Source: Patescibacteria group bacterium (GTDB lineage: Bacteria; Patescibacteriota; Patescibacteriia; JACRDY01). From it: DNA of 64,000 nucleotides. The notes below the pieces were generated by a model. The model searched no databases and was not told the DNA's origin. It saw only the letters and a program-made list of their open reading frames with translations. The stretch is taken from positions 71,552 to 135,551 of the forward strand of contig JBAZBH010000001.1 in NCBI GenBank assembly GCA_041671565.1. The letters are read 5' to 3'. Shown here one piece after another: positions 5,462 through 62,128 of the stretch (positions are counted from its first letter, which is position 1; every line of letters begins with the position of its first letter). The position numbers were made by a program, and so were the translations under genes.

Positions 5462-5632
5462 TTAGATTATATAATTTATAGATTAAGACGCTAGTAAAAC
5501 TTAATTAAAAATCCAAAGTTCAAAGTGCAAAGTTCAAATCAAGTTCAAAGGCCAAAACTCTGGCACCTTTTGATCTTTGGACTTGATTTGAACTTTGAAC
5601 TTAGGGTTTTGAACTTTAAACTGCGTTAAAAC
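5462..5632. repeat. Intergenic palindrome of caaagttcaaag-type tandem units
   Basis: ccaaagttcaaagtgcaaagttcaaatcaagttcaaagg versus ctttggacttgatttgaactttgaactt. Confidence 0.65.
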
Positions 5633-6999: not shown

Positions 7000-7061
7000 T
7001 TAGACTATTTATTTTTTCTTTTAAAGTCGGCTGACGATGAAAATTAATTATTATTTAGTTA

Positions 7062-7150
7062 TATGGCTTTATGGTTCTATGGTTTTATGGTTTTATGGTT
7101 AGGTGGCGTTTATCAACCCTTAACCATAAAGCCATAAAACCATATAACCA
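7062..7150. repeat. Intergenic palindromic repeat, family B (atggttttatggtt ... ccataaagccataaa)
   Basis: Related copies at 22317-22400 and 44938-45016. Confidence 0.7.
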
Positions 7151-7154
7151 TTTT

Positions 7155-9108: not shown

Positions 9109-9984
9109 TTAAGCGAGTCTAAACAACTCCTTGGTATTTTTGAAAGTCTCCGCCGCCACTTCTGCCAAGCTCAAACCTTTTAACTCGGCGACTTTCTCGG
9201 CCACGAACTCCACAAAAGCCGGCTCGTTGCGCGTCCCCCGATGCGGCTCAGGCGCGAGAAACGGCGCGTCGGTTTCCACCAAAATCCGGTCTAAAGGCAA
9301 CTCTTTAACAATCGCCTGCAGTTCAACCGCCTTTTTAAAAGTAACAATCCCGGTAAAACCGACGAAAAATCCCAATGCCACAAACTTTTTCGCCTGTTCC
9401 ATGTTCCCGCCAAAACAATGAATCACGCCTCTGATTCTTGATTCTTGATTCTTGATTCTTGATTCTAATATCCCCAACAAATCGTCATAAGCGCCATACG
9501 GCTCGCCCTTATTCCCCCGGCAATGCAACACCAACGGCAAGTCCAGTTCCCCGGCCAGTTTAATAAACCCGGCCAAGGTCTCCCGCTGAACTTTCTTAAT
9601 TTCTTCAGCCGGCAGTTTATTCTCGCCAAAATAGTAATAATCCAGACCCACCTCCCCGATGCCCACCACTTTCTCTGACGACAAAGCCAATTCTTTATAT
9701 TTGTTATAATCAAACTTTTCTTGCTTGGTGACAAACTTGTATTCTTCGCCGTTAAAAGTGGCCGACTCGGTGATGTCGCCGGTCAGATGAATCGGGTGCA
9801 GACCAACCACAGCATAAACGCCTTCCGGATATTTTTCCGCGATTTTGATGCTCCGCGCCGAAGTGGAAAGCTGCGAACCGATATTGATCAGCCAAATCCC
9901 TTTACTTAAAGACCGCCGGATCACTTCCTCGGCGTCGTCTTTGTAGGCGTTGAAATTGATGTGGCAGTGAGAGTCAAACAACAT
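9109..9984 (-). CDS. tatD: TatD family metal-dependent hydrolase/DNase
   Basis: Start at the conserved MLFDSHCH motif. The upstream ORF extension to 10008 is encoded by the hairpin repeat and is likely spurious. Confidence 0.85.
   Translation of the reverse strand: MLFDSHCHINFNAYKDDAEEVIRRSLSKGIWLINIGSQLSTSARSIKIAEKYPEGVYAVVGLHPIHLTGDITESATFNGEEYKFVTKQEKFDYNKYKELALSSEKVVGIGEVGLDYYYFGENKLPAEEIKKVQRETLAGFIKLAGELDLPLVLHCRGNKGEPYGAYDDLLGILESRIKNQESRIRGVIHCFGGNMEQAKKFVALGFFVGFTGIVTFKKAVELQAIVKELPLDRILVETDAPFLAPEPHRGTRNEPAFVEFVAEKVAELKGLSLAEVAAETFKNTKELFRLA
9433..9472. repeat. Tandem heptanucleotide microsatellite (gattctt about 5.5 copies) inside the tatD coding sequence
   Basis: Direct read ctgattcttgattcttgattcttgattcttgattcta; encodes ESRIKNQESRIR in a loop before GVIHCFGG. 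Confidence 0.9.
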
Positions 9985-10057
9985 ACACAGATTGGCACAG
10001 ATTAACACAGATACTCACAGATCCGTGCTAATCTGTGTTAATCTGTGTAAATCTGTG
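9985..10057. repeat. CACAGAT-unit hairpin: 3 direct units then 3 inverted units
   Basis: acacagattggcacagattaacacagatactcacagatccgtgctaatctgtgttaatctgtgtaaatctgtgcc; same architecture at 11717-11778 and 39213-39287. Confidence 0.85.
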
Positions 10058-10060
10058 CCG

Positions 10061-11716
10061 TTAATATATCTCCTTACGGTAGCACTCCTCACAATAAACC
10101 TTCTCCGGCCGATCTGGCGCGTAGGTGGTTTTAAACTCGTTAGCGCAACCTTCTTTCATGCATTGGCGATGGTATAGCGTTTTATTCTTATGGGTTTTTA
10201 GCCGCCGCAACATTCGGCAATCCGGGCAACAATCGGGCAAAGGAATATTTTGCTGTTGATAAAATCTGAATTCCGGTTTAATAATTTTATAATTGCGGCT
10301 GCACTCGGCGCAAGCCAAAATCTCTTGGCAAATTTTTTCGTCCAAACCGGCAACCTCATCAGGAATAGTTTTGATCGTTTCTTTTCCCTTAGTTCGGCCG
10401 ATTTCTTCCTGCCATTTGATGCCTTGCTTTAACACTTCCTCTTTGGTCAAGGCAAAATTTTCCAGCGAAGCGCGAGTTTCGTTCAACCCAAACGGCGCCA
10501 AGGCATAAGGGAAAAACTCACCCCACTCGCCCGCCGCTTTCATGGCAGTAATAATTTTGGATTTTAACTGATTATAATCGGCTTCGGCATATTTTTTATT
10601 TAATAGGCAAAAGGTTTGATTTTTTAAGCCAACTGAGCCAAAAATTTCCTTGGAACTAAAAATGCTGTCGCTATACCAAATGTGGCTGCTTTCCCAGACG
10701 ATCGAACAAAAAAAGGTGCCATAAGAGCCGCGGCCGGTAGAAGCGCACTGATAGGCTAATTGCGAAGGCGTGCCGCCATAACCGGTGCAATCATTGGCAT
10801 CTTTCATGTTAGAGCCGTTAATAACAAACCCGCAATCTTCGGCGTCCCAAATATCATAAACCTCATGGCAATTTTTGGTATAACGGACAAAATCACCGGT
10901 CGTTTTAACGGTTTTTAAATTATGGCTATAGGGGAAAATCGCTTCAGCTTTAACTGTCTGGTATTTCTGGCGCAGCTTAACTATTGCCGTTCGGCTGGCA
11001 AGTTGTTTTTTAAACTCCAGAATCTCGGCTTCGGTCGCTTGCCGGTTCCAAAGATAGTTAGTTTGATTGCGCAGATTAGTACAACCAAAACAATTGTGAC
11101 AACCAACACAGTCATAACAAAAATGGCAGTCGGCCGAGTCGCGAGAATATTCTAAATAAGAGCAATTATAACAATTTTCAATGTCAGTGCACTCATAGCA
11201 TAATTCGCTTTTATAACAAAAGGCGGCGTCCAGGCAATCGCGGGAATTATAAACCGACCAGCCATATAAACAATCTTCGCAATCGGTGGAGCCGGAAAAT
11301 TGCAAATAACAATTTTTATTCCGTGAAGTGTGGTGGGTATATTCGCTATTGATGGAATTAGTATTATTAATAGCGAGCCGCGGCACGGCCAAAAGGAGCT
11401 CGCCAAATTGCTCAAAAAATCCCCTTTGGAAATCATAATCGCGGCCAAAATCCAGTCCGTCCCACTTATCGCTAAACCAACATTCGTGGCAATAAACTTT
11501 ATAAGGTTTGTCCGGCGAATAAACCGAGACGATATTTTGTTGGCATAAATCGCATTTCCGCTGATACAAAATATATTCATTGCGCCAAACCGCCCGCTGG
11601 CGCGCTCGGCACGGCGGGCATTCCGTTGGCTCGGGCACGCCAATCCGGCCGTAAAACGCGCGGTCCTCGGGGTAAATGGTGAAGATGGATTGGCAGTTTT
11701 TACATTGCATAAGCAC
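10061..11716 (-). CDS. Cysteine-rich protein, paralog 1 of 4 (zinc-ribbon-like termini, central CxxC clusters); function unknown
   Basis: 551 aa. N-terminus CKNCQS..FYGRIGVPEPTxCPxCR; C-terminus LYHRQCMxxGCANEF.TTYAPDRPEKVYCEECYRKEIY; internal CYNCxxCxNCFGCxNLRN motifs. Confidence 0.6.
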   Translation of the reverse strand: MLMQCKNCQSIFTIYPEDRAFYGRIGVPEPTECPPCRARQRAVWRNEYILYQRKCDLCQQNIVSVYSPDKPYKVYCHECWFSDKWDGLDFGRDYDFQRGFFEQFGELLLAVPRLAINNTNSINSEYTHHTSRNKNCYLQFSGSTDCEDCLYGWSVYNSRDCLDAAFCYKSELCYECTDIENCYNCSYLEYSRDSADCHFCYDCVGCHNCFGCTNLRNQTNYLWNRQATEAEILEFKKQLASRTAIVKLRQKYQTVKAEAIFPYSHNLKTVKTTGDFVRYTKNCHEVYDIWDAEDCGFVINGSNMKDANDCTGYGGTPSQLAYQCASTGRGSYGTFFCSIVWESSHIWYSDSIFSSKEIFGSVGLKNQTFCLLNKKYAEADYNQLKSKIITAMKAAGEWGEFFPYALAPFGLNETRASLENFALTKEEVLKQGIKWQEEIGRTKGKETIKTIPDEVAGLDEKICQEILACAECSRNYKIIKPEFRFYQQQNIPLPDCCPDCRMLRRLKTHKNKTLYHRQCMKEGCANEFKTTYAPDRPEKVYCEECYRKEIY

Positions 11717-11778
11717 AGATACTCACAGATTAACACAGATAGTCACAGATCTGTGCTAATCTGTGTTAATCTGTGTCG
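11717..11778. repeat. CACAGAT-unit hairpin between paralogs 1 and 2
   Basis: cacagatactcacagattaacacagatagtcacagatctgtgctaatctgtgttaatctgtg. Confidence 0.85.
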
Positions 11779-13425
11779 TTAATATATCTCCTTACGGTAG
11801 CACTCCTCGCAATATACCTTCTCCGGCCGATCTGGCGCATAGGTGGTTTCAAACTCGTTTGCGCAGCCGGGTCTCATGCACTGCCGGTGATAAAGCCGGC
11901 GCGGATTGCGCAGTTTGATTCTTTCTAAGTGCCGGCAAAGCGGACATAACCGCGGCAGGGGCAAATTTTGTTTTTGGTAAAAGCTGATTTCCTGCGGTAT
12001 GAGTTTATAATTTTTCTGGCAATTTTGGCAAGCTAAAATTTCTTTGGCTAAACCGGCTGGCGCGTCTTTAATATCGTCCGGGATATTTTCCCATTGGACC
12101 GTTTCTTTGCCAAAAGTGCCAGGTAAATTATCCTGCCACCGCCAGCCTTTTGCCAGCACTTCTTTGCGAGTTAAAGGATAATATTCTTGCGCCACGGTCT
12201 CGTTGTAAGCATAAGGCGACATGGCAACCGGGAAAAACTCACCATATTCGCCATCAGCTTTCATCTTAGCGATAACTTTTGGCAAAAGTTTTTTGTATTC
12301 TTCTTCGCTGTATTGCTTATTCAAAATGCAAAATTTCTGACCCCGCAAACCCGAACAGGCAAATAAATCTTGCGAGGTGAAACATTGGAAGCAATATTGA
12401 ATAAAAGAATTTTCCCAGCTAAAAATATTAAACATGCAATGCGCTGAAGTATCAGCGCTCAGCACTTCATACAGCCAACTGGCCGGCCAACCGCTATTAT
12501 CGCAATCATAAGAATCAGTCACTTTTTCACCGCGATAAAAATACTTGCAATTTGTCGCTTCTTTTAAATCGGAACAATTCTTTACATCGTGGCAATAGGT
12601 CAAATAATCGCCAGTAGAATTTTCACATTTTACCTGTATGGCATGAGCCTGGATATTTTTCTTTTTAAAATCAAAAAAATCATCTTTGGCTTTCTGATAA
12701 AAAGAATATTTGCCTAATTCTTGAAGGCGATTTTTAAAATCTGCTTCGCTAATTGGCTCATTAAACCAATGATATTTGGCATTACGCAAATTCACGCAAC
12801 CAAAACAATTGCTACAGCCACGGCAGTTATAACAAAAATAAGTTTCTAGGCAGTCATGACAATTCTGGCAGTAAACACCGTTATAACAGTTTTCACAGTT
12901 AATCAAATAATAAGAAAGCTCGCATTTATGGGCATAATGCGAATCTAAAATATTACTACAATGAATATTAACGGTGCCATAATGGCTTTCTTCGCACCAG
13001 CCGCTACCCACTTCATAATAACAATTTAAATCGCTTTCCTGAAGATTGCCATAATGAGAGTTAACACAATTACGGTTAAAGAGCGCCGGACGCGGCATAG
13101 CTAAAAATAAATCGTGAATTTGTTCCATCATTGGCCGTTGCCAATCAATTTCCCGGCCATAACTAAAAGGATCCCAAGCATCGCCCCACCACTCCGCCTG
13201 TTCATAAACTGGAAACTTCTTGTCCGGCGAATAAACCGACAAAATAGTTTTACCGCTCAGATCAGACTTTCCCTGATAAAAAGTCCTTTCATTGCGCCAG
13301 GCTAACCGCCGTTGGTTGCGGCAAAGCGGACAAAAGGTTGGTTCGGGCACGCCAATCCGGCCGTAGAATGCGCGGTCCTCGGGGTAGATGGTGAAGGCGG
13401 ATTGGCAGTTTTTACAAGCGGGCAT
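11779..13425 (-). CDS. Cysteine-rich protein, paralog 2 of 4
   Basis: 548 aa; same N- and C-terminal zinc-ribbon motifs and CYNCRGCSNCFGCVNLRN. Confidence 0.6.
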   Translation of the reverse strand: MPACKNCQSAFTIYPEDRAFYGRIGVPEPTFCPLCRNQRRLAWRNERTFYQGKSDLSGKTILSVYSPDKKFPVYEQAEWWGDAWDPFSYGREIDWQRPMMEQIHDLFLAMPRPALFNRNCVNSHYGNLQESDLNCYYEVGSGWCEESHYGTVNIHCSNILDSHYAHKCELSYYLINCENCYNGVYCQNCHDCLETYFCYNCRGCSNCFGCVNLRNAKYHWFNEPISEADFKNRLQELGKYSFYQKAKDDFFDFKKKNIQAHAIQVKCENSTGDYLTYCHDVKNCSDLKEATNCKYFYRGEKVTDSYDCDNSGWPASWLYEVLSADTSAHCMFNIFSWENSFIQYCFQCFTSQDLFACSGLRGQKFCILNKQYSEEEYKKLLPKVIAKMKADGEYGEFFPVAMSPYAYNETVAQEYYPLTRKEVLAKGWRWQDNLPGTFGKETVQWENIPDDIKDAPAGLAKEILACQNCQKNYKLIPQEISFYQKQNLPLPRLCPLCRHLERIKLRNPRRLYHRQCMRPGCANEFETTYAPDRPEKVYCEECYRKEIY

Positions 13426-13431
13426 AACAAT

Positions 13432-13525
13432 AGTATTCAGGGGTCAGTATTCGGTATTCAGGGGACTATATCCACAAACACCAAATACGGACCCCTGAAT
13501 ACTGAATACTGTTCCCTGAATACTT
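13432..13525. repeat. Intergenic palindromic repeat, family C (agtattcaggg... / ...ccctgaatact)
   Basis: Related copies at 45885-45980 and 62032-62128. Confidence 0.7.
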
Positions 13526-14037: not shown

Positions 14038-14194
14038 AAATTATAAAATAATTTTTAATTTCTAATTTAAAATTTTTAATGAATTCTTAATTTCTAATTT
14101 TAAATTGTCGGCTAACCTAGGCTTTGGGTTTAAAAATTAAGAATTAAGCCTTAAAAATTAATTAAAAATTAGAAATTTTAAATTAAAAATTCCC

Positions 14195-15872: not shown

Positions 15873-17681
15873 TTACTGGTTTAAAACATCCTGTAGATTA
15901 ATCGAAGTCCCGCCACTCGCCGGCTTTGGCGGAGTTGTGGGTCGAGGTTTTTCTTGGTTCGGCCGAACGGCGCCGGCTGGCGTGCGGTTAGAACGAAAAC
16001 CCGACCGCGGTTCGGTGGGCGCGCTTTTTGGAGCTTCAACTTTAACGGTAGTTGGCTTTATCTCGCTGCTTACTGGCGTGACAGAAACGGCTGGCGCCGC
16101 CGACTGATTAGCCGGGTTAGCGAGTGGCAAAACTTTGCCGGCTGTTATATCTCTCAAGCATTTTTTACAATAAACACCCGGCTTCCGCGGCGTGAATGAT
16201 AGGTAGGTAATTTTACCGCAACCGTCGCAAATCCAAGGGATATTGCGGTCCGGCATGGCGCGATCGGCGATTTCCGCCTTGACCATTTTGCCTTTAAACT
16301 CAATTTCCCCCATTTCAACTTTTTTGGCCGCTGGCGCTTCGGCTTCTCCGTCATCGCTATTGCCAGGGCCTTCGCCGGTATCACCCATGCTCCAGCGCAT
16401 GATTTTGTCTTCCACTTCTTCGCGCGGCCGGCCATACCGTTCGCGGGAAACCCGGATCACTTTCTCGGAAACATTGTCTTCCTCGGGTTCAAACAGCGGC
16501 GGCAGGGTATTGGCGGAAAAAGCCTCGGACGCCACGCCGTTGATCATTAATTTCAAATAAATTTCATGCTTGGTCAGGTTAACCAAATCCTCGGCGGTAA
16601 ACCGCGGGGCAAAATCCGGCGCCAAAGTCGAGGCATCGGTCGCGCCCACGCGAAACGACATCATCGTGCCCACATTGCCAAAAACCGCCGCTTTCACTTC
16701 CGGACTCAGCTGATCGACATATTGATGGGCAATAATCAAACACAAGCGATATTTTCTCGCTTCGGACAAAATGCCGGCAAAACTCTCAGTCGCAAAATTT
16801 TGAAATTCGTCAACATAGAGAAAAAAATCTCGGCGTTCTTCTTCCTGGATATTAACGCGCGTCATCGCCGCCAGCTGAATCTGGGTAATCATCATTGAAC
16901 CGAGCAGTTGCGCCGTGTCTTCGCCGATCCGGCCTTTGGACAAATTCATGACAATTATCTTGCCTTCGTCCATCGCTTGCCGAACATCAAAAGAAGACTT
17001 AACCTGGCCAACGATATTGCGGATCAAATAATTGGACAAAAATTGGCCGACTTTGTTTTGGATTGGGGCAATCGCTTCTTGGGCAAATTTTTCGGTGTAG
17101 CGGGAAAATTCATCCACCCAAAACGACCGCACCACCGGATCCTCCACATTGGCAATAATCTTTTTGCGGTAAGCCTTGTCCACTAAAATCCGCATCACAC
17201 CGAGTAGCGTGGTGCCGCTGTTGTCAATCAACGCCAAAATCGCGTTCCGCAAAAGGTATTCGAGCCGCGGGCCCCAAGAATCGGCAAACAATTTTTTGAA
17301 AATCGCCACCAAACCGGATGCCACCACATGCCGTTGGTTGCGGTCGCGGATTTCCAAGATATTGAAAGCTACCGGAAAGTCAATGTCGGACGGATTAAAA
17401 TAGATAACATCGTTGATCCGGCTGGGCGGCACAAACTCCAAAATCTTTTCGGCGCTGTCGCCGTGCGGGTCAATAAACGCCAGGCCATGGCCATTCTTAA
17501 TATCCTGAATAATCATGTTTTCGAGGAGCGTCGTTTTGCCCATACCGGTCTTGCCGATAATATACATGTGCCGCCGCCGGTCATCCAGGCGAATGCCAAA
17601 ACGCCTTTCGTTATCGCGAAAGTTAGTCTTGGCAAAAAAATTTATTTCATTGGGATCTTGCATATTAGCTATATATAACAA
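15873..17681 (-). CDS. HerA/FtsK/TraD-VirD4-like P-loop ATPase (DUF87-type) with a C-terminal YacG-like zinc ribbon and a Pro/Thr/Ala-rich tail
   Basis: Walker A IIGKTGMGKTT; Walker B FLYVDEFQNF; C-terminal CDGCGKITYLSFTPRKPGVYCKKC. Confidence 0.65.
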   Translation of the reverse strand: MLYIANMQDPNEINFFAKTNFRDNERRFGIRLDDRRRHMYIIGKTGMGKTTLLENMIIQDIKNGHGLAFIDPHGDSAEKILEFVPPSRINDVIYFNPSDIDFPVAFNILEIRDRNQRHVVASGLVAIFKKLFADSWGPRLEYLLRNAILALIDNSGTTLLGVMRILVDKAYRKKIIANVEDPVVRSFWVDEFSRYTEKFAQEAIAPIQNKVGQFLSNYLIRNIVGQVKSSFDVRQAMDEGKIIVMNLSKGRIGEDTAQLLGSMMITQIQLAAMTRVNIQEEERRDFFLYVDEFQNFATESFAGILSEARKYRLCLIIAHQYVDQLSPEVKAAVFGNVGTMMSFRVGATDASTLAPDFAPRFTAEDLVNLTKHEIYLKLMINGVASEAFSANTLPPLFEPEEDNVSEKVIRVSRERYGRPREEVEDKIMRWSMGDTGEGPGNSDDGEAEAPAAKKVEMGEIEFKGKMVKAEIADRAMPDRNIPWICDGCGKITYLSFTPRKPGVYCKKCLRDITAGKVLPLANPANQSAAPAVSVTPVSSEIKPTTVKVEAPKSAPTEPRSGFRSNRTPAGAVRPNQEKPRPTTPPKPASGGTSINLQDVLNQ

Positions 17682-17685
17682 TCAA

Positions 17686-18087
17686 CTATGAGATGAATTG
17701 AATACCACATCCTATATTTTCTCCTCTCTTATGATGGCACTGCTCTTTTCCATCATTATCACCTTTGTAATCGTCACAATATCCTTGCTCAGCGCTTTTA
17801 TTTGAATAGACGCAAACATAATTTATACATTCATCATCATAGACACATTTCTTATTAGCATCTTTGGCTTTTATTTCACAAGTTTGAGCAAAAGAATGTG
17901 CAAATATTTTCCCTCCTCCTTTTATACATTTTTCACAATTAATTTGTCGGCCATTCCCATCAAAACAAAATCCCGCCTCTCTTGAATTGTCATCAACCAA
18001 TAAATTATTTTTATTGTTTAGAAAAAGAACCACGATTAAAATTATAATAACTAAGATAATTAACCCCACAATTAATATTTTCTTCAT
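17686..18087 (-). CDS. Small N-terminally anchored cysteine-rich protein (hypothetical) in a low-GC patch
   Basis: TM helix then about 12 Cys; locally AT-rich DNA. Confidence 0.45.
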   Translation of the reverse strand: MKKILIVGLIILVIIILIVVLFLNNKNNLLVDDNSREAGFCFDGNGRQINCEKCIKGGGKIFAHSFAQTCEIKAKDANKKCVYDDECINYVCVYSNKSAEQGYCDDYKGDNDGKEQCHHKRGENIGCGIQFIS

Positions 18088-18119: not shown

Positions 18120-19577
18120 CTAGCCGACCGGCAAATCAGCCGGCGGGCCTTTTTCTTCTTCCTGAGAAATTTCTTCCGGCTGGACCGACTGGTCGCCTTT
18201 TTTGTCTTCCCGACCGCCGAGTACCGCCGTCCACGCTTCACCCGGCGCCACCGGCAAATAAAACGGCGCTTCGGCTTTGACCGCTTCGGATTTTTTGATC
18301 ATCAAGGTCCGGGTATTCCCCAGCGGAAAATGCCAGAGCGAGGCCAGTTCGCCGATATTCAAGATAAAACCGGTACCAAACTCGCTGCCCTTTCTGGTGC
18401 TCCGCACACGGTATTTCTGCAGAATATTATTCTTGCGATAATGATCCACGCGATACTGGGGGAAATAGTATAAATGAGAGGTTGAAACTTTGGTGTACTT
18501 ACTCTGGATCAAACCATTGGCGTAAAGATTGGTGTATTGATGGAGCGCGCCCAAGAAACCCTCTTTGACTTTATTTTTATTAAAAATTTCTTTGCGGGCG
18601 ATATAAACCGCGCGCATGGTGACGCGAAAACCGAGTTTACCCACTTTATCCAAAATACTTTCAATCGCGGCGGATTCTTTGGCAGTCAGATTGGAACCGA
18701 CGGTTTTTTCTCCCGGCTTCACCGGCTCGGGCCGAGCGAGAAAAGTATAAATAATCTCATCGGTAATATAACTGATAAAGCCCAAAATACTGCCGGTTAG
18801 TGAGGAGTAATCGTCGCTACCGGTCAGGCCGGTCGCGTGTTTGACAAACGCCACACCTTTTTTCTGCCATTTGTTTTCTAAGGGCGTAACAATTATCTGC
18901 CACCAAAATTCTTCGCCGGCTTTAATTTTCGCTAGATTTTCCAAAATACTGTTTAAGGGATCAGAATCAATCTCTTTCAGATTTTCCCAAGTTTTGATCG
19001 GAAAAAAATCTTTTTTACTGAGATTAAAAGAAGTGCCCCAGATATCGTAACCATTATCATTATCCGGCCAGCGTAAATCTTTATATTTTTCCGTATAATC
19101 AGGCACTTCGGCGATTTCGGCGTCCGGATATTGGGCGTAGATGGCCGCCTCCACCAAGTCGCGATACGGCCGCGGCGCCCGTATCAAGTATTCCAAATAA
19201 CCTTCACGGGAAATCAGCTCAAAACTGAATTCCGGCTGGATCTTGCCGACAAAAAACCGCTCAATCCAGTCAATTTTTTTCCAAGCGCCGGATAAAGAAG
19301 TAAAAATATATTCCACGGCTTGCGGCGGCTTGGCCGCGGCGCCCGCTCCCGCCTTCGCCGCCAAATTTAACCGCGGCAAACTCAAAGACAAAACCACCCA
19401 TTCCCACCGCTTGCGGTATTTGATCCGCCGACTGGCAATCCATTCTTCAATCATGTACCAAATCATCGGCAAGACAAAAAGCAGCCAACCGCCATGCGCC
19501 AAAAAATACCAGGTAAAAGCCCAGACGCTAGTTGTTGGCACTTGGCCAAAGTCAATCACGATATTCATAATTACCAA
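18120..19577 (-). CDS. Membrane-anchored hypothetical protein (485 aa) adjacent to the ATPase
   Basis: N-terminal TM segments; no recognisable domain. Confidence 0.5.
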   Translation of the reverse strand: MVIMNIVIDFGQVPTTSVWAFTWYFLAHGGWLLFVLPMIWYMIEEWIASRRIKYRKRWEWVVLSLSLPRLNLAAKAGAGAAAKPPQAVEYIFTSLSGAWKKIDWIERFFVGKIQPEFSFELISREGYLEYLIRAPRPYRDLVEAAIYAQYPDAEIAEVPDYTEKYKDLRWPDNDNGYDIWGTSFNLSKKDFFPIKTWENLKEIDSDPLNSILENLAKIKAGEEFWWQIIVTPLENKWQKKGVAFVKHATGLTGSDDYSSLTGSILGFISYITDEIIYTFLARPEPVKPGEKTVGSNLTAKESAAIESILDKVGKLGFRVTMRAVYIARKEIFNKNKVKEGFLGALHQYTNLYANGLIQSKYTKVSTSHLYYFPQYRVDHYRKNNILQKYRVRSTRKGSEFGTGFILNIGELASLWHFPLGNTRTLMIKKSEAVKAEAPFYLPVAPGEAWTAVLGGREDKKGDQSVQPEEISQEEEKGPPADLPVG

Positions 19578-19585
19578 AAAATAAA

Positions 19586-20218
19586 TTACTGGCCGCTCTC
19601 TTCTTTGTCAGCCCGGCCGGAATATAGACTCTCTTGTCTGCCGGTTAATGTCGTCTGAAAATATTTATAGACTTTATAGGGCTCACTAATGTGCAAGAGT
19701 TTGTCATAAGCGGTTCGCGTCCGACTTTGATGATTGCCGCTATTACTGGTTTCGATCTTGCCAGTATCAATATTTATTGTTCCGATTGAAAATATTTTAT
19801 CAATTAATCCTACATTTACATTCGCCGTCTTGACTTCCGTAAAATAAATAGAGTTAAAGTCAGTGCCAATTAAACCAGACTTGATCAGCACTCTTTTATT
19901 GGTAATAGTATAAACCTTTACATAATTAGAGAAAAAACCAACCAAAGAAAGTAGCAGTCCAACAACTAGAATAATCAAACCAACCGTGGCTCCGGCAATA
20001 CTTCTCGGAGTATTATTTAAATTATAACTGATAATTTCTTGCGCAAAAGCAAAAAATGATAATCCGACCACAATCAACAAAGATACTGCCAGCTGAAAAA
20101 TCATAACTTTCCGACTAATCACATCTTGCCAAACTATTTTTTCTTGCGACTCTAAGACCGCTTTTATTTCTTCTGTTTTCATAAATTTATAATTTATTAA
20201 TAACCAGAAATAACACAA
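19586..20218 (-). CDS. Bacterial PH-domain (YdbS/YdbT-like, bPH_2) membrane protein
   Basis: Two TM helices then TITNKRVLIKSGLIGTDFNSIYFTEVKTANV. Start may be the internal MKTEEIK (20182). Confidence 0.55.
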   Translation of the reverse strand: MCYFWLLINYKFMKTEEIKAVLESQEKIVWQDVISRKVMIFQLAVSLLIVVGLSFFAFAQEIISYNLNNTPRSIAGATVGLIILVVGLLLSLVGFFSNYVKVYTITNKRVLIKSGLIGTDFNSIYFTEVKTANVNVGLIDKIFSIGTINIDTGKIETSNSGNHQSRTRTAYDKLLHISEPYKVYKYFQTTLTGRQESLYSGRADKEESGQ

Positions 20219-20955: not shown

Positions 20956-22113
20956 TTATTCTTTGTTAGCTAAAGTATATTTTTTATCGGCTAACTTCTT
21001 GAATTTATCCTTATTCATCAAGGCCAAGTTAATCGTCGCTTTTTTAACTAGCCGTTGCTTGGCGACTTCCACCGCGATTTCGTCTTTGGAAAGCGGGCTT
21101 TTCTGCGCCAAAACCTTGGCAATCACCTCGGTGACCGTGCCGGTTTCATAACCCCATTCTTTCAGGGCGTAAATGCCGCGGCCGATCAAGACATAGCGGC
21201 TGTCCAGAATCAATTCATTATGAATCGTCGCCGGTAAAGCTTTTTTGTGGTCAAATTTAGTCTGATTAATCAGTTCGGCAATCTCGGTAAAATGGAGCGG
21301 CTTGCCGGCTTCTTTCATCACCAAATAAATCTTGTCAGCCATCCGTTTCGGCGTGATCGAGCTCCAGTGGCTCATACCCACCTGACCAAAAAGATTTTTC
21401 TTAATCCGCTTGCTGGTATGGATATAAGACGAAACCGCTTCGTCCAGATCTAAGCCTGTTTGCTTCATTTCCGGCAGATTGCTGATTTTCTCGCTCAACT
21501 CGCGGTAAAAATCCTGATTTTTGAGCAGGCGGAAAAATTCATCAACTTTCACCGGCTGGCCGTTAGTATTGATCAGAGCCACTAATTTTTCAATCACTTC
21601 TTCCACCAACTCCCAAGGGGTTTCTTTTAGCTTCCAAGAATCGTGGAAATGATCGCGATTTTCTATTTTTTCAAATTTATTGGCGAGCAACTGGGAAATA
21701 ATAAAGGCGAGAGACTTTTTGTGTTGCAACACTTCTTCTTCCGCGAGATCCTTGGAGGAAAGGCCATAGAAATCAACCAAGCTGTCCAACAGCCGGTCTT
21801 CTTGCATCGCGCCGCCGTATTTCCGCAAAAATTTATTAATTGTCGCCTCAATCTCGTTGAGGTTGTCCAAAACCCCAGATTGTTCCAGTTTTTCTTTCAT
21901 TTTTTTAAGGCCGTCCCGTTCAATCTGCCGCACCCGTTCGCGAGTGACTTTATAGTCCTGGCCGATTTTCTCCAGAGTTTCTTTCCGTTTTAGGCCTTTA
22001 AGCAAGCTATGCCGGCGGGACAAAACATCTTTTTCCCGAATTGAAAGCAAGCTAAACAAACGAGTGAGGACTTCGTTGAAATTAATGTTAGTGGTTTTAG
22101 TCTCGGTGTCCAT
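20956..22113 (-). CDS. Sigma-70 region-4 HTH plus C-terminal HARE-HTH domain protein (putative transcription factor)
   Basis: N-terminus ETLEKIGQDYKVTRERVRQIERDGLKKMK (sigma-70 region 4); C-terminus ...VLIGRGIYALKEWGY (HARE-HTH signature). Confidence 0.55.
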   Translation of the reverse strand: MDTETKTTNINFNEVLTRLFSLLSIREKDVLSRRHSLLKGLKRKETLEKIGQDYKVTRERVRQIERDGLKKMKEKLEQSGVLDNLNEIEATINKFLRKYGGAMQEDRLLDSLVDFYGLSSKDLAEEEVLQHKKSLAFIISQLLANKFEKIENRDHFHDSWKLKETPWELVEEVIEKLVALINTNGQPVKVDEFFRLLKNQDFYRELSEKISNLPEMKQTGLDLDEAVSSYIHTSKRIKKNLFGQVGMSHWSSITPKRMADKIYLVMKEAGKPLHFTEIAELINQTKFDHKKALPATIHNELILDSRYVLIGRGIYALKEWGYETGTVTEVIAKVLAQKSPLSKDEIAVEVAKQRLVKKATINLALMNKDKFKKLADKKYTLANKE

Positions 22114-22316: not shown

Positions 22317-22400
22317 ATATGGTTTTATGGTTTTATGGCTCTATGGTTGGATAAGTTAAAGAGTCTAACCATAAAGCCATAAAGCCATAAAGCCATAAAC
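22317..22400. repeat. Intergenic palindromic repeat, family B copy
   Basis: ggttttatggttttatggctctatggttggataagttaaagagtctaaccataaagccataaagccataaagccataaac. Confidence 0.7.
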
Positions 22401-31761: not shown

Positions 31762-32002
31762 AACGAACGGGGATTTAAGATTTAAGAAAGTCGGTAATTT
31801 GTGTTTAAACCTCTGAACTTAGTTAAAATGTCCAATGACAAAATCCAAACGTCCAATCAAATCCCAATGACTAATGTCCAATAACGAAGTTTTGGCATTG
31901 GACATTGATTGGACATTTGAGCTTGGGCATTGGGCATTTAAAAGTGAATTTTACCGCGAAAACGCTGATTTACCCGTATTCTTAAATCTTAAATCTTACT
32001 TC

Positions 32003-35153: not shown

Positions 35154-35254
35154 GCCAATAACTATATTTTAGAATGACCAATATCCAAATCCCAATGACC
35201 AATAACTTCTAAGCTTAATTGGATATTGGGATTTGGATATTGGTCATTTTTCTT

Positions 35255-37537: not shown

Positions 37538-37830
37538 AGAGTTTTATTTAATATTATTAATTAGTATTCAAATTATAACATAAAAGCCAAAATTCAGATA
37601 CACGGGATTCAAAGCCAAAATTCAAAAGTCCCGCCTATGCCAAGGCTTCTGCCTACGCTGAAGCTTCGGCAGACAAGCCGGCGGGCATACAAAATTCAAA
37701 AGTGAAAGTTAAAACTAAAAACTCAATCTACTTTTGCCTTTTCAATTACCTTATCACTTTTCCACTTCGGGCTTGACATTTTTTGAGTATCGTCTTATTA
37801 TCAGTTATAACTTTCAACTGGAGGAAAAAC

Positions 37831-38013
37831 ATGGCTCTTTTTAGACAAGACAGCACAGGAATTACCTGCAACTATTGCGGCGATAACCGAACCTGGGACG
37901 AAGGTGAAGATCCGCCGGAAAGTTGCCGCAACCCGATGTGCTCCTCGCACCAACTGGCCACGCCGGCACCGCAAAACACGGAAAAACCGGCCGACGCCCC
38001 CGCGGCAAGCTGA
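37831..38013 (+). CDS. Small Cys-containing protein (60 aa)
   Basis: SD caactGGAGGaaaaacATG; contains CNYCG...CRNPMC. Confidence 0.45.
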   Translation: MALFRQDSTGITCNYCGDNRTWDEGEDPPESCRNPMCSSHQLATPAPQNTEKPADAPAAS

Positions 38014-38097
38014 GCCCATCAGCCACCGCGCCCCACGCCCTAACCGACAATCCTCTTGCCCAACAGCGGCACCGATCGTCGGTTTTTTTATCCACTA

Positions 38098-38130
38098 TTG
38101 ACTTATTGGCCGGCGAGTGTTAGTATGAAT
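38098..38130 (+). promoter_or_regulatory. Sigma70-like promoter (TTGACT, 17 bp spacer, TAGTAT)
   Basis: ttgacttattggccggcgagtgttagtatgaat, directly upstream of 38161. Confidence 0.45.
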
Positions 38131-38160
38131 TGTTATTTTCAAATTCAAAAATTGGGAGAA

Positions 38161-38367
38161 ATGATGATGAAAATGATGGTTGACGATTCAAAACCTGAAC
38201 GGCGAAAGCCCTATGCTCTTTCATGGACTTGCAAAAGATGCGGGAAAATAAACAATCGGGACCGGCGTCGTTGCCGATGCAACGAACCCAGATTCGCGAG
38301 TTGGATTGACTATCCAAACTTCGGTAAGCCGATTCTTAATCGGCCTCAACAAAAAAACAACAAATAG
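38161..38367 (+). CDS. Small zinc-ribbon protein (about 68 aa)
   Basis: SD GGGAGAA; CKRCGK...CRCNEPRF. Confidence 0.5.
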   Translation: MMMKMMVDDSKPERRKPYALSWTCKRCGKINNRDRRRCRCNEPRFASWIDYPNFGKPILNRPQQKNNK

Positions 38368-38417
38368 CGGTTACCAGCCAAACAGCGCTCGTAGCCGCTT
38401 TTCTTTTTAAATAAAAT

Positions 38418-38450
38418 AACCGACGAAAGCTTTAGTTCGTCGGTTTTACC
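38418..38450 (+). terminator. Rho-independent terminator (aaccgacgaa-agctttag-ttcgtcggtttt)
   Basis: Stem-loop then T-run. Confidence 0.65.
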
Positions 38451-38712
38451 TTATTGCCTAATTTTAAAATTAAATAACTAATAAACTGATTTGCAACAAC
38501 TTCACCTCCCAAACCAATGGGAATTGTTTTTCCCTCCCCGGCCGCCAGCGCTGTTAACAACTATTTCGCCCCGGACTCTTTCGGGACGAATGATTGTGTC
38601 GGGCAATTTTCCGCGTCAGTCTCCGGCATGACTTCATACCCGAGGCAATCCCCTTTTTCGCTGTCGGTTCTTTGCCGATAATACTTGCAATCTTTGCACT
38701 TAGGCATATTAA

Positions 38713-38736
38713 CCACGCTTTAGCGTGATTTTTTTG
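38713..38736 (+). terminator. Rho-independent terminator (cacgc-ttta-gcgtg then atttttttt) closing an unassigned plus-strand transcript
   Basis: Stem-loop then T-run; the upstream 38470-38712 has only a weak 58-aa ORF without an SD. Confidence 0.5.
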
Positions 38737-38815
38737 GACCAACTTCTATTATAACACCAAAACTGAGATTGCCAAGCCCGCCAAATTTAGCTTCAAAGTT
38801 CACCGCCGACCGAAC

Positions 38816-38997
38816 CTATAGACATCACCCTATGAAATAGCACTTTAGACGCCGCCGGAAATGATGAGCGGCGTCGGCCTGGAGCGGAAAAAAGCGGAAA
38901 TGTACTGGATGTACATTGAGAATTTTTTCCGTGAAGGCCAAGCCGCTCGCTTTTCCGGTGGATGGATAAGTGCTATTTCATAGGGTGATGTCTATAT
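38816..38997. mobile_element. MITE-like element: 30-bp perfect terminal inverted repeats (ctatagacatcaccctatgaaatagcactt / aagtgctatttcatagggtgatgtctatat) flanking about 120 bp of nested palindromes
   Basis: Direct reverse-complement comparison; no ORF inside. Confidence 0.5.
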
Positions 38998-39212
38998 ATC
39001 CACACAATTTTTCTAAATTCTTGACCGACCATTTTTAAACTGTTATACTTTTGTCTTCTTAAATAATTAATTTCTGATAAAAATATGAAAAAAGGTCAAA
39101 CCGCCGTCTATCAAGCAGAATCCGCTAGCTCTGAATCAACTGAAAAAGTTTGGACGCCGGAAGATTTGAAGATGATTAGATTGAAGAAAGAAGGATTAGC
39201 GGGATAGAAGTA

Positions 39213-39287
39213 AAAACAGATTTGCACAGATAGACACAGATCAGCACAGATCCGTAAATATCTGTGTGAATCTGTGCAAATCTGTGT
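39213..39287. repeat. CACAGAT-unit hairpin downstream of paralog 3
   Basis: cagatttgcacagatagacacagatcagcacagatccgtaaatatctgtgtgaatctgtgcaaatctgtg. Confidence 0.85.
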
Positions 39288-40928
39288 TTAATAAATTTCT
39301 TTCCGATAACACTCGCGGCAATAAACTATTTCCGACCGGTTTGGATTATAAGTAGTCTGAATTTCTTGTTGGCACTTTGCACAAACACGCGACCAAAGTT
39401 TCTGCGGATTTCTTTGATGCAATCGGTCTAAATGTCGGCAGAGGTAGCATTTATCCGGTAACGGCAGATTTAAATTCTTATAAAACTTCAATTCTTGAGC
39501 AATAATCTTAAATTGCCGGCCACAAGCGCAAGCAAAAACTTCTTGGCAAATACTGTCCTTTACTCCCACGATGCTGTCTGGCGGTAAGTTAGCTTCAACC
39601 GCCTTTTCCTCTTGCTCGTACCAAGCTAAACCGCGACTAGTCGCCTCTTCTTTTGACAAAGGATAATAAAACCTGGCAGTTGTCTCATTATAACCAAAAG
39701 GCGAATAACGCGCCGGAAAAAATTCGCCATACTCGCCGGCCGCTTTCATTCGTTCGACAATTTTTTGGCGTAATTTAGTATACTCGCTTTCGGTATATTG
39801 TTTATTTAAGATACAAAATTCCTTTTTCTTCAAACCGCAACAGCCAAAACAATTTTTACAGCCGCTGCACTCCGAACAATATTCCAAATTTTGAGAACCA
39901 AAATAACAATGGAAGCAAAATCGACAATTATAATTATTTTCACCGACGATTGCCGACTCGTACATTAATTGGCTATTACCCCACTGAAAAACATCGTACA
40001 TGTCCTTGGAACTAAAATAAATAGCATAGCAATAACGGCAATTCTGCACTTCGCGGCAATCATATGAATCTTTAACTTGATTAACATTATTTAAATAATC
40101 GCCGGTGCAACCTTCATTTTTAACGCCATGCTGATAAAGATAAGGATATTTCAATCGATCGACGGCATGCTTTTGGCGCCAAATCTCAACTGCTTGGCGG
40201 CTACCAAGATTGGCCTCGGCCAAACGCCGCTGATAATCTTCAACTTTAAGCTGCTGGTTAAACCAACAATAATTTTGATTACGCAGATTAACACAGCCAA
40301 AACAATTATTGCAGTTAAAACAATTTTTCAAAAAATAACTCTCGGAACAACTCCGGCAATCCTGTGAATAAAATAAATTAAAACATTCATCACAATCAAT
40401 ACAACTATAACACAATTCACATTGGTGAACTTTTAAACAATCAACTAAATCCTTAGAGTTATTAACGGAATAAGAATAATAACAATCTTCGTTAAAGTCG
40501 CTGTCAAATATCAGATAACAATTTTTGACATGGCCGCAATAATTAACATAATCGCTATTATTTAAAGTTCCGTAAGTAACATTTAAGGCCGAGTGAGGCA
40601 CTTGATAATAAAAACTAAAAAATTGTTCAAAAAAAGTTTTTTGCTCGTCATAATCAATGCCAAAATCAAGCCCCTCCCAACCGTCACCCCACCAGACATG
40701 GGCATCACAAACCGCTATTTTACTCTCCGGGCGATAGGCGGAAATAATATTTTTGCCGGATAAATCGCATTTTCTTTGATATAAATTCATTTCGTTAACC
40801 CAGGCGAGCCGCCGTTGCTGCCGACAGTTAGGGCAGAGTGTCGGCTCGGGTACGCCAATCCGGCCGTAGAACGAGCGGTCCTCGGGGTAGATAGTGAATG
40901 GTTGGTTACAATTTTTACAGGCAGGCAT
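39288..40928 (-). CDS. Cysteine-rich protein, paralog 3 of 4
   Basis: 546 aa; MPACKNCNQPFTIYPEDRSFYGRIGVPEPTLCPNCR ... SEIVYCRECYRKEIY. Confidence 0.6.
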   Translation of the reverse strand: MPACKNCNQPFTIYPEDRSFYGRIGVPEPTLCPNCRQQRRLAWVNEMNLYQRKCDLSGKNIISAYRPESKIAVCDAHVWWGDGWEGLDFGIDYDEQKTFFEQFFSFYYQVPHSALNVTYGTLNNSDYVNYCGHVKNCYLIFDSDFNEDCYYSYSVNNSKDLVDCLKVHQCELCYSCIDCDECFNLFYSQDCRSCSESYFLKNCFNCNNCFGCVNLRNQNYCWFNQQLKVEDYQRRLAEANLGSRQAVEIWRQKHAVDRLKYPYLYQHGVKNEGCTGDYLNNVNQVKDSYDCREVQNCRYCYAIYFSSKDMYDVFQWGNSQLMYESAIVGENNYNCRFCFHCYFGSQNLEYCSECSGCKNCFGCCGLKKKEFCILNKQYTESEYTKLRQKIVERMKAAGEYGEFFPARYSPFGYNETTARFYYPLSKEEATSRGLAWYEQEEKAVEANLPPDSIVGVKDSICQEVFACACGRQFKIIAQELKFYKNLNLPLPDKCYLCRHLDRLHQRNPQKLWSRVCAKCQQEIQTTYNPNRSEIVYCRECYRKEIY

Positions 40929-41013
40929 AACAAAGTTATAAAGTTGAAAGTTATAAAGTTATAAAGTTTTCTAGTTCCCTAAACTTTCTACTTTATAACT
41001 TTATAACTTTCAA
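40929..41013. repeat. AAGTTATAAAGTT-unit hairpin between paralogs 3 and 4
   Basis: aagttataaagttgaaagttataaagttataaagtt ... aactttataactttataactttcaact. Confidence 0.8.
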
Positions 41014-42654: not shown

Positions 42655-42664
42655 TATCTCCTAC

Positions 42665-42752
42665 GAATTACGAATCAGCGCGAATGTACGAATTACGAAT
42701 CGCCGTGGTGGCTGGATTCGTACATTCGCGCTGATTCGTAATTCGTAGGGGT
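42665..42752. repeat. Perfect roughly 35-bp-arm inverted repeat (ctacgaattacgaatcagcgcgaatgtacgaat / attcgtacattcgcgctgattcgtaattcgtag), cgaat family
   Basis: Read directly; upstream of paralog 4. Confidence 0.85.
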
Positions 42753-44937: not shown

Positions 44938-45016
44938 CATGGTTTTATGGTTATATGGTTATATGGTTGGATGAATTAAAGAGTCTAACCATAAAGCCAT
45001 AAAACCATATAACCAT
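44938..45016. repeat. Intergenic palindromic repeat, family B copy
   Basis: catggttttatggttatatggttatatggttggatgaattaaagagtctaaccataaagccataaaaccatataaccat. Confidence 0.7.
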
Positions 45017-45884: not shown

Positions 45885-45980
45885 TAAGTATTCAGGGAAC
45901 AGTATTCAGTATTCAGGGAACCATATCCCCGAACACTGAATTTGAACCCCTGAATACTGAATACTGACCCCCGAATACTC
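45885..45980. repeat. Intergenic palindromic repeat, family C copy
   Basis: aagtattcagggaacagtattcagtattcagggaacc...cccctgaatactgaatactgaccc. Confidence 0.7.
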
Positions 45981-62031: not shown

Positions 62032-62128
62032 AAGTATTCAGGGAACAGTATTCAGTATTCAGGGGAGGGGTCGGTATCCACCGTTCGCGGATATAGTTCC
62101 CTGAATACTGAATACTGTTCCCTGAATA
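62032..62128. repeat. Intergenic palindromic repeat, family C copy
   Basis: aagtattcagggaacagtattcagtattcagggg...ccctgaatactgaatactgttccctgaatact. Confidence 0.7.

Follow-up and report, generated by a model that had tools for sequence, protein, structure and literature searches.

Zinc-ribbon-capped, cysteine-rich proteins of Patescibacteria with two predicted 12-residue cysteine-ladder solenoids

The antifreeze protein of the beetle Tenebrio molitor (TmAFP) is built of TCTxSxxCxxAx repeats, each forming one 12-residue coil with inward-pointing Cys, Ser and Ala. It is secreted and disulfide-bonded and, to our knowledge, is the only known 12-residue beta-helix lined with cysteines. Three domain models of unknown function, zf_Tbcl (PF13451) and zf_Tbcl_2 (PF23477) of Pfam and TIGR04272 of NCBIfam, describe probable treble-clef zinc fingers. 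According to a survey of VirD4-like type IV coupling proteins (T4CPs), 5,713 of them occur in 2,918 Patescibacteria genomes, 148 are near virB4, and the orphan ones may be exapted, their role being left open (Quinonero-Coronel et al. 2025, PMC12102498). Here we analyse a 64,000-nucleotide stretch of DNA (the window) from a Patescibacteria group bacterium (GenBank assembly GCA_041671565.1, contig JBAZBH010000001.1, positions 71,552 to 135,551 of the forward strand), which carries four paralogous genes, P1–P4, for extremely cysteine-rich proteins. The end modules of these proteins belong to the same domains as the three zinc-finger models, and their centre is predicted to contain two narrow solenoids with a core of cysteine ladders.

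The four genes are minus-strand open reading frames (ORFs), found in the ORF listing of the window exactly where the first-pass annotation, made from the letters alone, had placed four clear paralogs. P1 (10061..11716) encodes 551 amino acids (aa) with 39 Cys (7.1%) and has the database match WCT37_00520. P2 (11779..13425; 548 aa, 37 Cys, 6.8%) is 100% identical to WCT37_00525 and is the reference for residue numbers throughout. P3 (39288..40928) and P4 (41014..42654) both encode 546 aa, with 45 Cys (8.2%) and 42 Cys (7.7%), respectively. The proteins align over their full length, end to end, with 44-46% identity and 136 invariant columns. Among window genes of at least 150 aa, these four hold 163 of the 295 Cys (55%) within 13% of the residues, while the other 41 have a median Cys content of 0.59% and a maximum of 3.8%; hence the Cys richness is as unusual as it had seemed. 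The ORFs are not artefacts of low-complexity DNA, as they have thousands of full-length homologues and their termini are under purifying selection. When non-adjacent paralogs are compared over their last 26 codons, 18-22 residues are identical and 11-12 of these use differing codons, so that these residues are conserved by selection on the protein, and gene conversion is ruled out as the source of the identical termini. In the adjacent P1/P2 pair the same stretch is nearly identical at the DNA level, and there gene conversion may have acted.

All parts follow one order: zf_Tbcl and zf_Tbcl_2, X1, a helical linker, X2, a conserved core, and again zf_Tbcl and zf_Tbcl_2. In P2 the N-terminal module (residues 3-79; 13189..13419, minus strand, as for all parts of P2) consists of a zf_Tbcl treble clef with C4, C7, C32 and C35 and a zf_Tbcl_2-like ribbon. 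X1 (residues 119-236; 12718..13071) is the predicted 12-residue-per-coil beta-solenoid with the Cys-ladder core, ending with C201-x2-C204-x2-C207-x2-C210 and a helix. X2 (residues 266-383; 12277..12630) is its duplicate with a more degenerate Cys pattern. The conserved alpha/beta core (residues 384-460; 12046..12276) carries the motif GEYGEFFP...SPFxYNET.A..YFPL...G..W., and the C-terminal module (residues 465-548; 11782..12033) has a zf_Tbcl with C466, C469, C494 and C497 and a zf_Tbcl_2 with C516, C521, C539 and C542. Profile-profile alignment with hhalign matches the N-terminal module to residues 465-543 with a probability of 99.7% (E 3.4e-26) and X1 to X2 with a probability of 99.9% (E 1.4e-33), which shows an internal double duplication. 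The terminal motifs, the CxxC runs and the FC[IL]LNK...GE.GEFFP block that had been picked out from the letters are all present and conserved across 73 homologues. What the first-pass annotation missed is that the termini are known Pfam domains, that the protein is doubly duplicated, that its central Cys follow strict periods of 3 and 12, as is typical of the core of a narrow beta-solenoid and not of a row of CxxC metal sites, and that the family extends over the whole candidate phyla radiation (CPR).

The zinc-ribbon-like character that had been assigned to the termini is confirmed by matches to both Pfam domains. PF13451 matches P4 with 30.7 bits (cut-off 24) and 35 of the 73 members, with P1–P3 individually below the reporting threshold; PF23477 (cut-off 27 bits) matches P3 (29.1 bits), P4 (29.9 bits) and 30 of the 73. 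TIGR04272 (CxxC-x17-CxxC) stays below its cut-off of 36 bits on the paralogs, with 25.3 and 22.6. These models describe only fingers of about 40-50 residues, less than 35% of the family protein, and leave its centre of about 350 residues without a model. C4, C7, C32, C35 and all four Cys in the last ribbon never vary, and the zinc-site ligands are invariant or nearly so in three of the four sites; in P1 and P2 the first CxxC of the last ribbon is replaced by C-x4-C. About 36% of the members have an intact N-terminal zf_Tbcl_2 site. P1 and P4 retain it and so have all four terminal sites intact, and it is lost in P3 and degenerate in P2. About 12-16 Cys per chain would ligate the three or four structural zincs of the terminal modules. 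The chain ends six residues past the last Cys in 219 of 227 members, with the fixed tail C-Y-x-x-E-[VI]-Y-COOH. Some members (in L050, L054 and L158) have an insertion of 20-30 residues between knuckles 1 and 2 of the last ribbon, with extra Cys and His (CxC...HxH...C).

The zinc modules are basic (median isoelectric points, pI, of 8.1 and 8.9) and contain a conserved CRxQRRxAxRNER helix; for the solenoids and the core the pI is acidic, 4.8-5.1. The zinc modules and the core have the lowest column entropy, 1.7-2.0 bits, and the solenoids and the linker the highest, 2.3-2.7 bits; conservation within X1 peaks in the inward register. None of the members contains a stretch hydrophobic enough for a signal peptide or a transmembrane helix (maximum Kyte-Doolittle value over 19 residues at most 1.16), so we take the proteins to be cytoplasmic by default and probably soluble. 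Aromatic residues make up 14% of the family, His is rare, and no catalytic constellation was recognised among the invariant residues. Scans of the four paralogs against Pfam, NCBIfam and PADLOC, and of the 73 homologues against Pfam, gave nothing beyond the terminal zinc fingers: X1 and X2 have no Pfam or NCBIfam model, the core has no Pfam match, and of the anti-phage defence models of PADLOC none matched any of the four paralogs at E up to 0.1. The one match in PHROGs was phrog_15341 (unknown function), on X1, and searches of PDB sequences with the full-length and X-domain profiles gave only LIM-type finger noise and a non-significant match to TmAFP. The family could not be named from the letters, and the matches in Pfam, NCBIfam, PADLOC and PDB sequences likewise include no characterised enzyme family.

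The CxxC-rich central repeats noticed earlier are present, and their Cys are spaced with a period of three. Over about 100 residues of X1, nearly all distances between Cys in the 73 homologues are multiples of 3: at lags 3, 6, 9 and 12 there are 425, 296, 382 and 409 pairs where about 110 are expected (z 20-35), compared with 2-18 at other lags. Indels blur the pattern in X2, which is otherwise the same. Set in a 12-residue register, the Cys of X1 line up as four ladders, 135/147/159/171/207/219, 162/174/198/210, 177/189/201 and 168/180/192/204. The AlphaFold2 model of full-length P2 (pLDDT 83.7, pTM 0.83) starts the X1 strands at 135, 147, 159 and so on to 219, and from residue 351 to 500, which includes the core, its block mean pLDDT is 89-97. 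The model of the isolated X domain, computed from the X1 and X2 alignment, reaches a pLDDT of 88.2 (93-97 in the centre) and has a beta-bridge at every third residue. X is thus predicted to be an acidic beta-solenoid, very narrow, with about 8-9 coils of 12 residues each, in which every third, inward-pointing residue is Cys or a small residue (Ser, Ala or Val) and about 20 ladder Cys fill the cores. The inward register is 40% Cys, 16% Ser and 10% Leu, and the flanking registers are rich in Asn/Asp and in Tyr, Phe, Lys, Glu and Arg.

Most of these Cys behave as core fillers rather than as metal or disulfide ligands. Even Cys counts occur in 106 of 227 X1 and 110 of 227 X2 domains, with no parity bias, versus 135 of 227 zinc modules (p 0.005). 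Most central positions hold Cys in only 30-70% of the members and otherwise Ser, Val or Leu, Ser being the commonest substitute in the solenoids. The presence of a Cys is correlated with that of its neighbour at i+12 (odds ratio 2.3-4.0, p 5e-3 to 9e-6) and not with most partners at i+3. Finally, X2 of P1 lacks most of its Cys; that of P3 is Cys-rich (CSECSGCKNCFGCCG). It is the random parity, the substitution by Ser, the covariation along the ladder and the loss in P1 together that lead to this conclusion. The last coil of X1 differs, with C201, C204, C207 and C210 conserved at 79-96%, and this C-x2-C-x2-C-x2-C is the only candidate for an additional metal site. Ladder cores together with zinc ligands account for the extreme Cys content. 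We consider this structural account, zinc-ribbon caps and two Cys-ladder solenoids, better supported than the functional reading given below.

The closest described geometry is that of TmAFP (PDB 1EZG), a right-handed beta-helix which shares with the X domain the 12-residue coil and the period-3 inward Cys, Ser and Ala. The X-domain profile retrieves just two PDB sequences, 1EZG among them, but with E 5 and a high compositional bias this match is non-significant and so gives no evidence of homology. Unlike TmAFP, the X domain has no TCT motif and no ice-binding face, and its outward ladders are Asn/Asp and Tyr/Phe; the family proteins have no signal peptide and no even-Cys bias, and are bacterial multidomain proteins of about 550 aa with zinc ribbons. 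The unpaired Cys numbers mean that disulfides are not obligatory in the family.

The best neighbours of the X model among PDB structures, searched with Foldseek, are of the repetitive quadrilateral or parallel beta-helix class with acidic surfaces, namely the pentapeptide-repeat proteins (MfpA, EfsQnr and QnrB1), the CARP domain of TBCC, RP2 and CAP, and tailspikes. No match reaches significance (best E 1.9e-3, TM at most 0.29). The pentapeptide-repeat coils have 20 residues and those of other solenoids 18-25, with Leu/Phe cores, versus 12 residues and Cys/Ser cores in the family, and the TM scores are 0.2-0.3. The full-length model found nothing in the PDB (best E 3.3), and BFVD yielded only weak Cys-rich or solenoid matches. 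Four known classes were considered for membership and rejected. The period is 3/12 and not the 5/20 of tandem A(D/N)LXX pentapeptide repeats, with no match to Pfam Pentapeptide. There is no CxxCxxCxxxCP motif or Fer4 match of a 4Fe-4S ferredoxin, the Cys spacing being uniformly x2 and the positions variably occupied. Metallothioneins are small, with about 30% Cys, few or no aromatics and no stable fold without metal, as opposed to about 550 aa, 7% Cys, 14% aromatics and a confidently predicted fold. Finally, the DnaJ CR domain, with its four CxxCxGxG repeats, has no Pfam match in the 73 members, in which CFGC is followed by xNLRN and not by GxG.

The family is large. A word-indexed sequence search gave more than 6,286 matches at E <=1e-5, and HMMER against 1.84 billion representatives at 50% identity gave 6,267, 4,124 and 2,523 proteins at E <=1e-3, 1e-10 and 1e-30, respectively. 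All named matches are from CPR: Falkow-, Kerfeld-, Uhr-, Peregrini-, Peri-, Gracili-, Abawaca-, Nomura-, Staskawicz-, Giovannoni-, Lipton- and Jorgensenbacteria and Paceibacterota. The genome scan also returned three non-CPR labels, which belong to contigs of 1.8-5.1 kilobases (kb) in metagenome-assembled genomes (MAGs) and are probably mis-binned. The family is thus almost entirely confined to Patescibacteria. It is essentially absent from viral collections, with one fragment in IMG/VR and one weak ribbon match in INPHARED, and we reject a phage origin on the basis of these nearly empty results. A PF13451 protein is also missing from the annotation tables of Southlakia epibionticum ML1, a saccharibacterium that is genetically tractable.

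Copies are often numerous. The source MAG has a fifth paralog, WCT37_01190, on another contig. In a survey in which the ORFs of 82 family loci were searched with a hidden Markov model of the family, 54 loci have two or more copies, the largest arrays being 11 copies in 22 kb (L004 and L011) and 9 copies (L043). A Peribacteria MAG has at least 19 copies of about 1.65 kb each on two contigs (L011 and L044). In 91% of cases the sequence most similar to a family gene belongs to another organism (median identity 54%), and the closest paralog within the locus has a median identity of 43.5%. Therefore the arrays are not recent amplifications, and the paralogs are old and separately conserved. Obligate hetero-pairs, with intact and degenerate N-terminal second ribbons in alternation, were considered and rejected as the array order is arbitrary. 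Domain fusions are uninformative: the long variants are either upstream-ORF artefacts or carry insertions in the last ribbon.

The gene neighbourhood offers a candidate partner. Clustering of the neighbours in the 82 loci revealed a VirD4/TraD/TrwB-like ATPase as the dominant one, in 26 loci and mostly directly adjacent, followed by a divergent TrmB-like regulator (13 loci), DnaK (10), DnaJ (7), a PaaX-like regulator (6) and GrpE (5). In the window the ATPase, T4CP-like and of the FtsK/HerA superfamily, lies at 15873..17681 on the minus strand; it matches Pfam TrwB_AAD_bind (43.4 bits) and DUF87, weakly the NCBIfam models TraD, VirD4 and CedD, as well as phrog_5156 (E 1.5e-67) and, in PADLOC, mad8 (E 1e-15) and HerA models. 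Hypothetical proteins of large Bacillus phages (phage G gp156, SPO1-like) also match it. It had been proposed that the C-terminal motif of the family recurs in this ATPase, and indeed PF23477 matches its residues 482-510 (E 8.9e-5). The ribbon of the zf_Tbcl_2 type occupies residues 485-508 (16158..16229, minus strand; CDGCGKITYLSFTPRKPGVYCKKC), and its CxxC-x17-CxxC occurs in 68 of 123 ATPase relatives. Profile-profile comparison matches it to the zf_Tbcl_2 modules of the family with a probability of 95-97% (E 3.8e-8 and 3.4e-11), and the ATPase of locus L056 reaches 45.8 bits with TIGR04272, against a cut-off of 36.

In most of 80 metagenomic loci the gene immediately upstream of the ATPase encodes a membrane-anchored partner, Nmem485, and the pair makes up a two-gene cassette; in loci of the Peregrinibacteria type the two are fused (about 746 aa). 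In the window Nmem485 (18120..19577, minus strand) has no Pfam match, one hydrophobic segment and a match to the N-terminal part of phrog_5156 (E 1.9e-13). A 133-aa ORF between Nmem485 and the ATPase (17686-18087, minus strand) combines a strongly hydrophobic anchor at the N-terminus with a C-terminal part rich in Cys; it has no significant match in Pfam, NCBIfam or PADLOC, and in PHROGs only a non-significant one (phrog_17041, E 0.06). Upstream of the cassette are genes for a protein with sigma-70 region 4 and HARE-HTH (20956-22113, minus strand) and a bPH_2 membrane protein (19586-20218, minus strand).

Gene order depends on the lineage. In the Paceibacteria type, with CYS standing for a family gene, it is grpE-CYS(-CYS)-PaaX-like(-)-dnaK-ATPase(~700 aa)-CYS-CYS-ATPase(~500 aa)-dnaJ-CYS, and this dnaK-operon arrangement is found in L016, L025, L029, L053 and L056 and, independently, in L135 and L159. 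The PaaX-like regulator is divergent and upstream of dnaK in such loci. In the Peregrinibacteria type the order is TrmB-like(-)-CYS array-ATPase fused to the membrane partner. A TrmB-like winged-helix regulator of about 250 aa stands divergently and directly upstream of the CYS gene or array in loci of the Peregrinibacteria/Gracilibacteria type (L007, L014, L019, L027, L040, L043, L055, L060, L065, L066, L071 and L080). The window ATPase and those adjoining family genes are of the orphan Patescibacteria T4CP kind described in PMC12102498, which in the passages searched mentions no zinc, Cys-rich neighbours or dnaK (0 occurrences of either 'zinc' or 'dnak').

Elsewhere in the window the neighbours of P1/P2 are housekeeping genes (TatD, CvpA and MetRS), and those of P3/P4 are an AI-2E-family transporter and GAPDH. 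Between a SIMPL-family gene and P3, the 1.75 kb at 37540-39287 contain no ORF longer than about 100 aa and no Rfam match at the gathering threshold; two small ORFs with CxxC motifs lie at 38056-38367 (plus strand) and 38561-38716 (minus strand). Nearly every intergenic gap of the window contains a long hairpin, with arms of 26-60 nucleotides that are 73-100% complementary and composed of tandem units of 7-9 nucleotides. These hairpins are found at 5498-5627, 7046-7152, 9984-10059, 11714-11775, 13432-13524, 14039-14177, 22318-22397, 31823-31942, 35173-35248, 39211-39290, 40932-41015, 42660-42749, 44947-45016, 45887-45979 and 62033-62130. A few unit families recur at distant sites, e.g. AGTATTCAGGG, CACAGAT(T/A)A and ATGGTTTT. 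The hairpins bracket all four Cys-rich genes but are genome-wide, and so they look like terminator- or REP-like elements. As nearly every gap has one, we reject the idea that those upstream of the two pairs are regulators specific to the family.

What might such proteins do? We tentatively suggest, at somewhat less than even odds, that they form a set of adaptors or scaffolds which works with the orphan VirD4-like ATPase and the Hsp70 system. Each gene would encode a soluble, non-enzymatic modular protein, in which the zinc-ribbon ends, the core and the C-terminal tail would serve as a common docking module and the solenoids as rigid recognition rods specific to each paralog. The shared machinery would be the ATPase, with the same ribbon in its cytoplasmic tail, and Hsp70; the adaptors might supply it with proteins, or with nucleic acid that their basic ribbons bind. 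The suggestion is drawn from the combination of constant ends, core and tail with variable rods and linker in old, separately conserved paralogs, from the ribbon shared with the ATPase, and from the lineage-dependent gene order. Several points weigh against it. The function is purely one that we infer, with no domain fusion to help. Seen from the ATPase side, a family gene is present in only 8 of 80 metagenomic loci (7 of the 44 loci of at least 10 kb), and most ATPase loci show only the cassette with the membrane partner. In the window P1/P2 are two genes away from the ATPase, with CvpA and MetRS in between, and P3/P4 have no ATPase nearby. The 82 loci are phylogenetically non-independent, which makes the enrichment of the ATPase a rough estimate. 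The zf_Tbcl_2 ribbon may occur in other families too, and its sharing need not mean interaction; the metal content and redox state of the ladder Cys cannot be read from sequence.

Other roles can be imagined for the same features. The proteins might be cargo exported by a CPR-specific translocase built on the membrane-anchored VirD4-like ATPase, kept unfolded by DnaK/DnaJ/GrpE until their ladder Cys oxidise outside and turn them into rigid, TmAFP-like rods at the cell surface or on the host. That TmAFP, with its Cys-lined helix of 12 residues, is secreted with disulfides fits such a picture, as do the genes that adjoin T4CP-like ATPases and sit inside the dnaK operon, the membrane anchor of Nmem485, the diversified multi-copy arrays of a large family and the strictly fixed tail, which could be a signal; moreover, CPR have extracytoplasmic disulfide formation of the MdbA/VKOR type (Meheust 2019, PMC6744442). 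We nevertheless regard export as unlikely. The proteins have neither a signal peptide nor a transmembrane segment, terminal zinc ribbons are typical of cytoplasmic proteins and the same ribbon is in the cytoplasmic tail of the ATPase, the solenoid Cys numbers lack the even bias of obligatory disulfide proteins, the paralogs, old and each conserved in its own right, are not fast-evolving, and the association is weak when counted from the ATPase. We also know of no case in which a T4CP alone forms a channel. A bolder version unites export with the adaptor reading and has the family as the client or adaptor repertoire of a Patescibacteria-specific machine of orphan VirD4-like ATPases, membrane partner and Hsp70; ribbon ends and tail would dock to the ATPase, and the rods would either be exported and oxidised to disulfide-stapled surface or effector rods or deliver paralog-specific cargo. 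To this we give only a small chance.

The location between grpE, dnaK and dnaJ in several Paceibacteria-type loci, together with the many Cys and zinc sites and the divergent TrmB-like and PaaX-like regulators adjoining the genes in 13 and 6 loci, would also suit a thiol or zinc stress protein of the heat-shock regulon, i.e. an Hsp33-like redox-regulated holdase or thiol buffer that oxidation or zinc loss switches on and that passes its clients to DnaK/DnaJ/GrpE. But the ladder Cys are freely swapped for Ser or Val and X2 can lose most of them, a generic buffer would hardly call for 10-19 old paralogs that are each conserved, no CIRCE element was matched in the window, and neither Hsp33 nor the DnaJ CR domain resembles the proteins, which makes this role quite improbable. 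A direction towards nucleic acids, in which basic ribbon ends with their CRxQRRxAxRNER helix bind DNA or RNA and the acidic rods act as mimics or spacers, working with the ATPase in DNA uptake, processing or protection, appears quite unlikely as well. The best fold matches are indeed the DNA-mimicking MfpA, EfsQnr and QnrB1, and the ATPase is related to the DNA translocases TraD, VirD4, CedD and FtsK/HerA; yet those matches are weak (E >=1.9e-3, TM 0.2-0.3), a 12-residue coil is far thinner than B-DNA, no nucleic-acid-binding domain model matches, and apart from the ATPase the neighbourhood does not point to DNA metabolism. Least of all do we expect the CxxCxxCxxC runs to bind Fe-S clusters or many Zn or Cu ions in the manner of metallothioneins or polyferredoxins, a very unlikely role in spite of 6.8-8.2% Cys and the well-conserved C201/C204/C207/C210 coil. 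The ferredoxin motif and Fe-S Pfam matches are absent, most positions are only partly occupied by Cys and accept Ser, Val or Leu, Cys numbers show no bias to parity or to multiples of four, covariation runs along the ladder and not within CxxC pairs, and 14% aromatics in a well-ordered predicted fold are unlike metallothioneins. It is the parity, substitution and covariation data that weigh most against both metal clusters and obligatory disulfides.

The genes themselves are already public as 'hypothetical' or 'zinc-ribbon domain containing', and their end domains are Pfam entries. In the literature searched we found no description of the family as a unit, of its double-duplicated architecture or of a 12-residue Cys-ladder solenoid, nor of the CPR-wide arrays or of the way in which the family is partly linked to orphan T4CPs and to the dnaK operon. 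The link from the ATPase to the Cys-rich family and the zinc ribbon that they share are new observations made here.

Last, we note what the family means for its hosts. Patescibacteria have genomes of about 1 Mb, and some of them spend 2-3% of it on these genes; given the age of the copies and their separate conservation, the family must be important in the life of this huge uncultivated radiation. The X domain would be the first bacterial and apparently cytoplasmic Cys-cored solenoid with 12 residues per coil, a geometry otherwise known from a secreted beetle antifreeze protein. The partial linkage to the ATPase and the dnaK operon gives a testable lead on the role of the orphan VirD4-like ATPases. 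If the family did prove to be the client or adaptor repertoire of a Patescibacteria-specific machine, this would provide a function for thousands of 'exapted' CPR T4CPs and a new kind of thiol-lined beta-solenoid.

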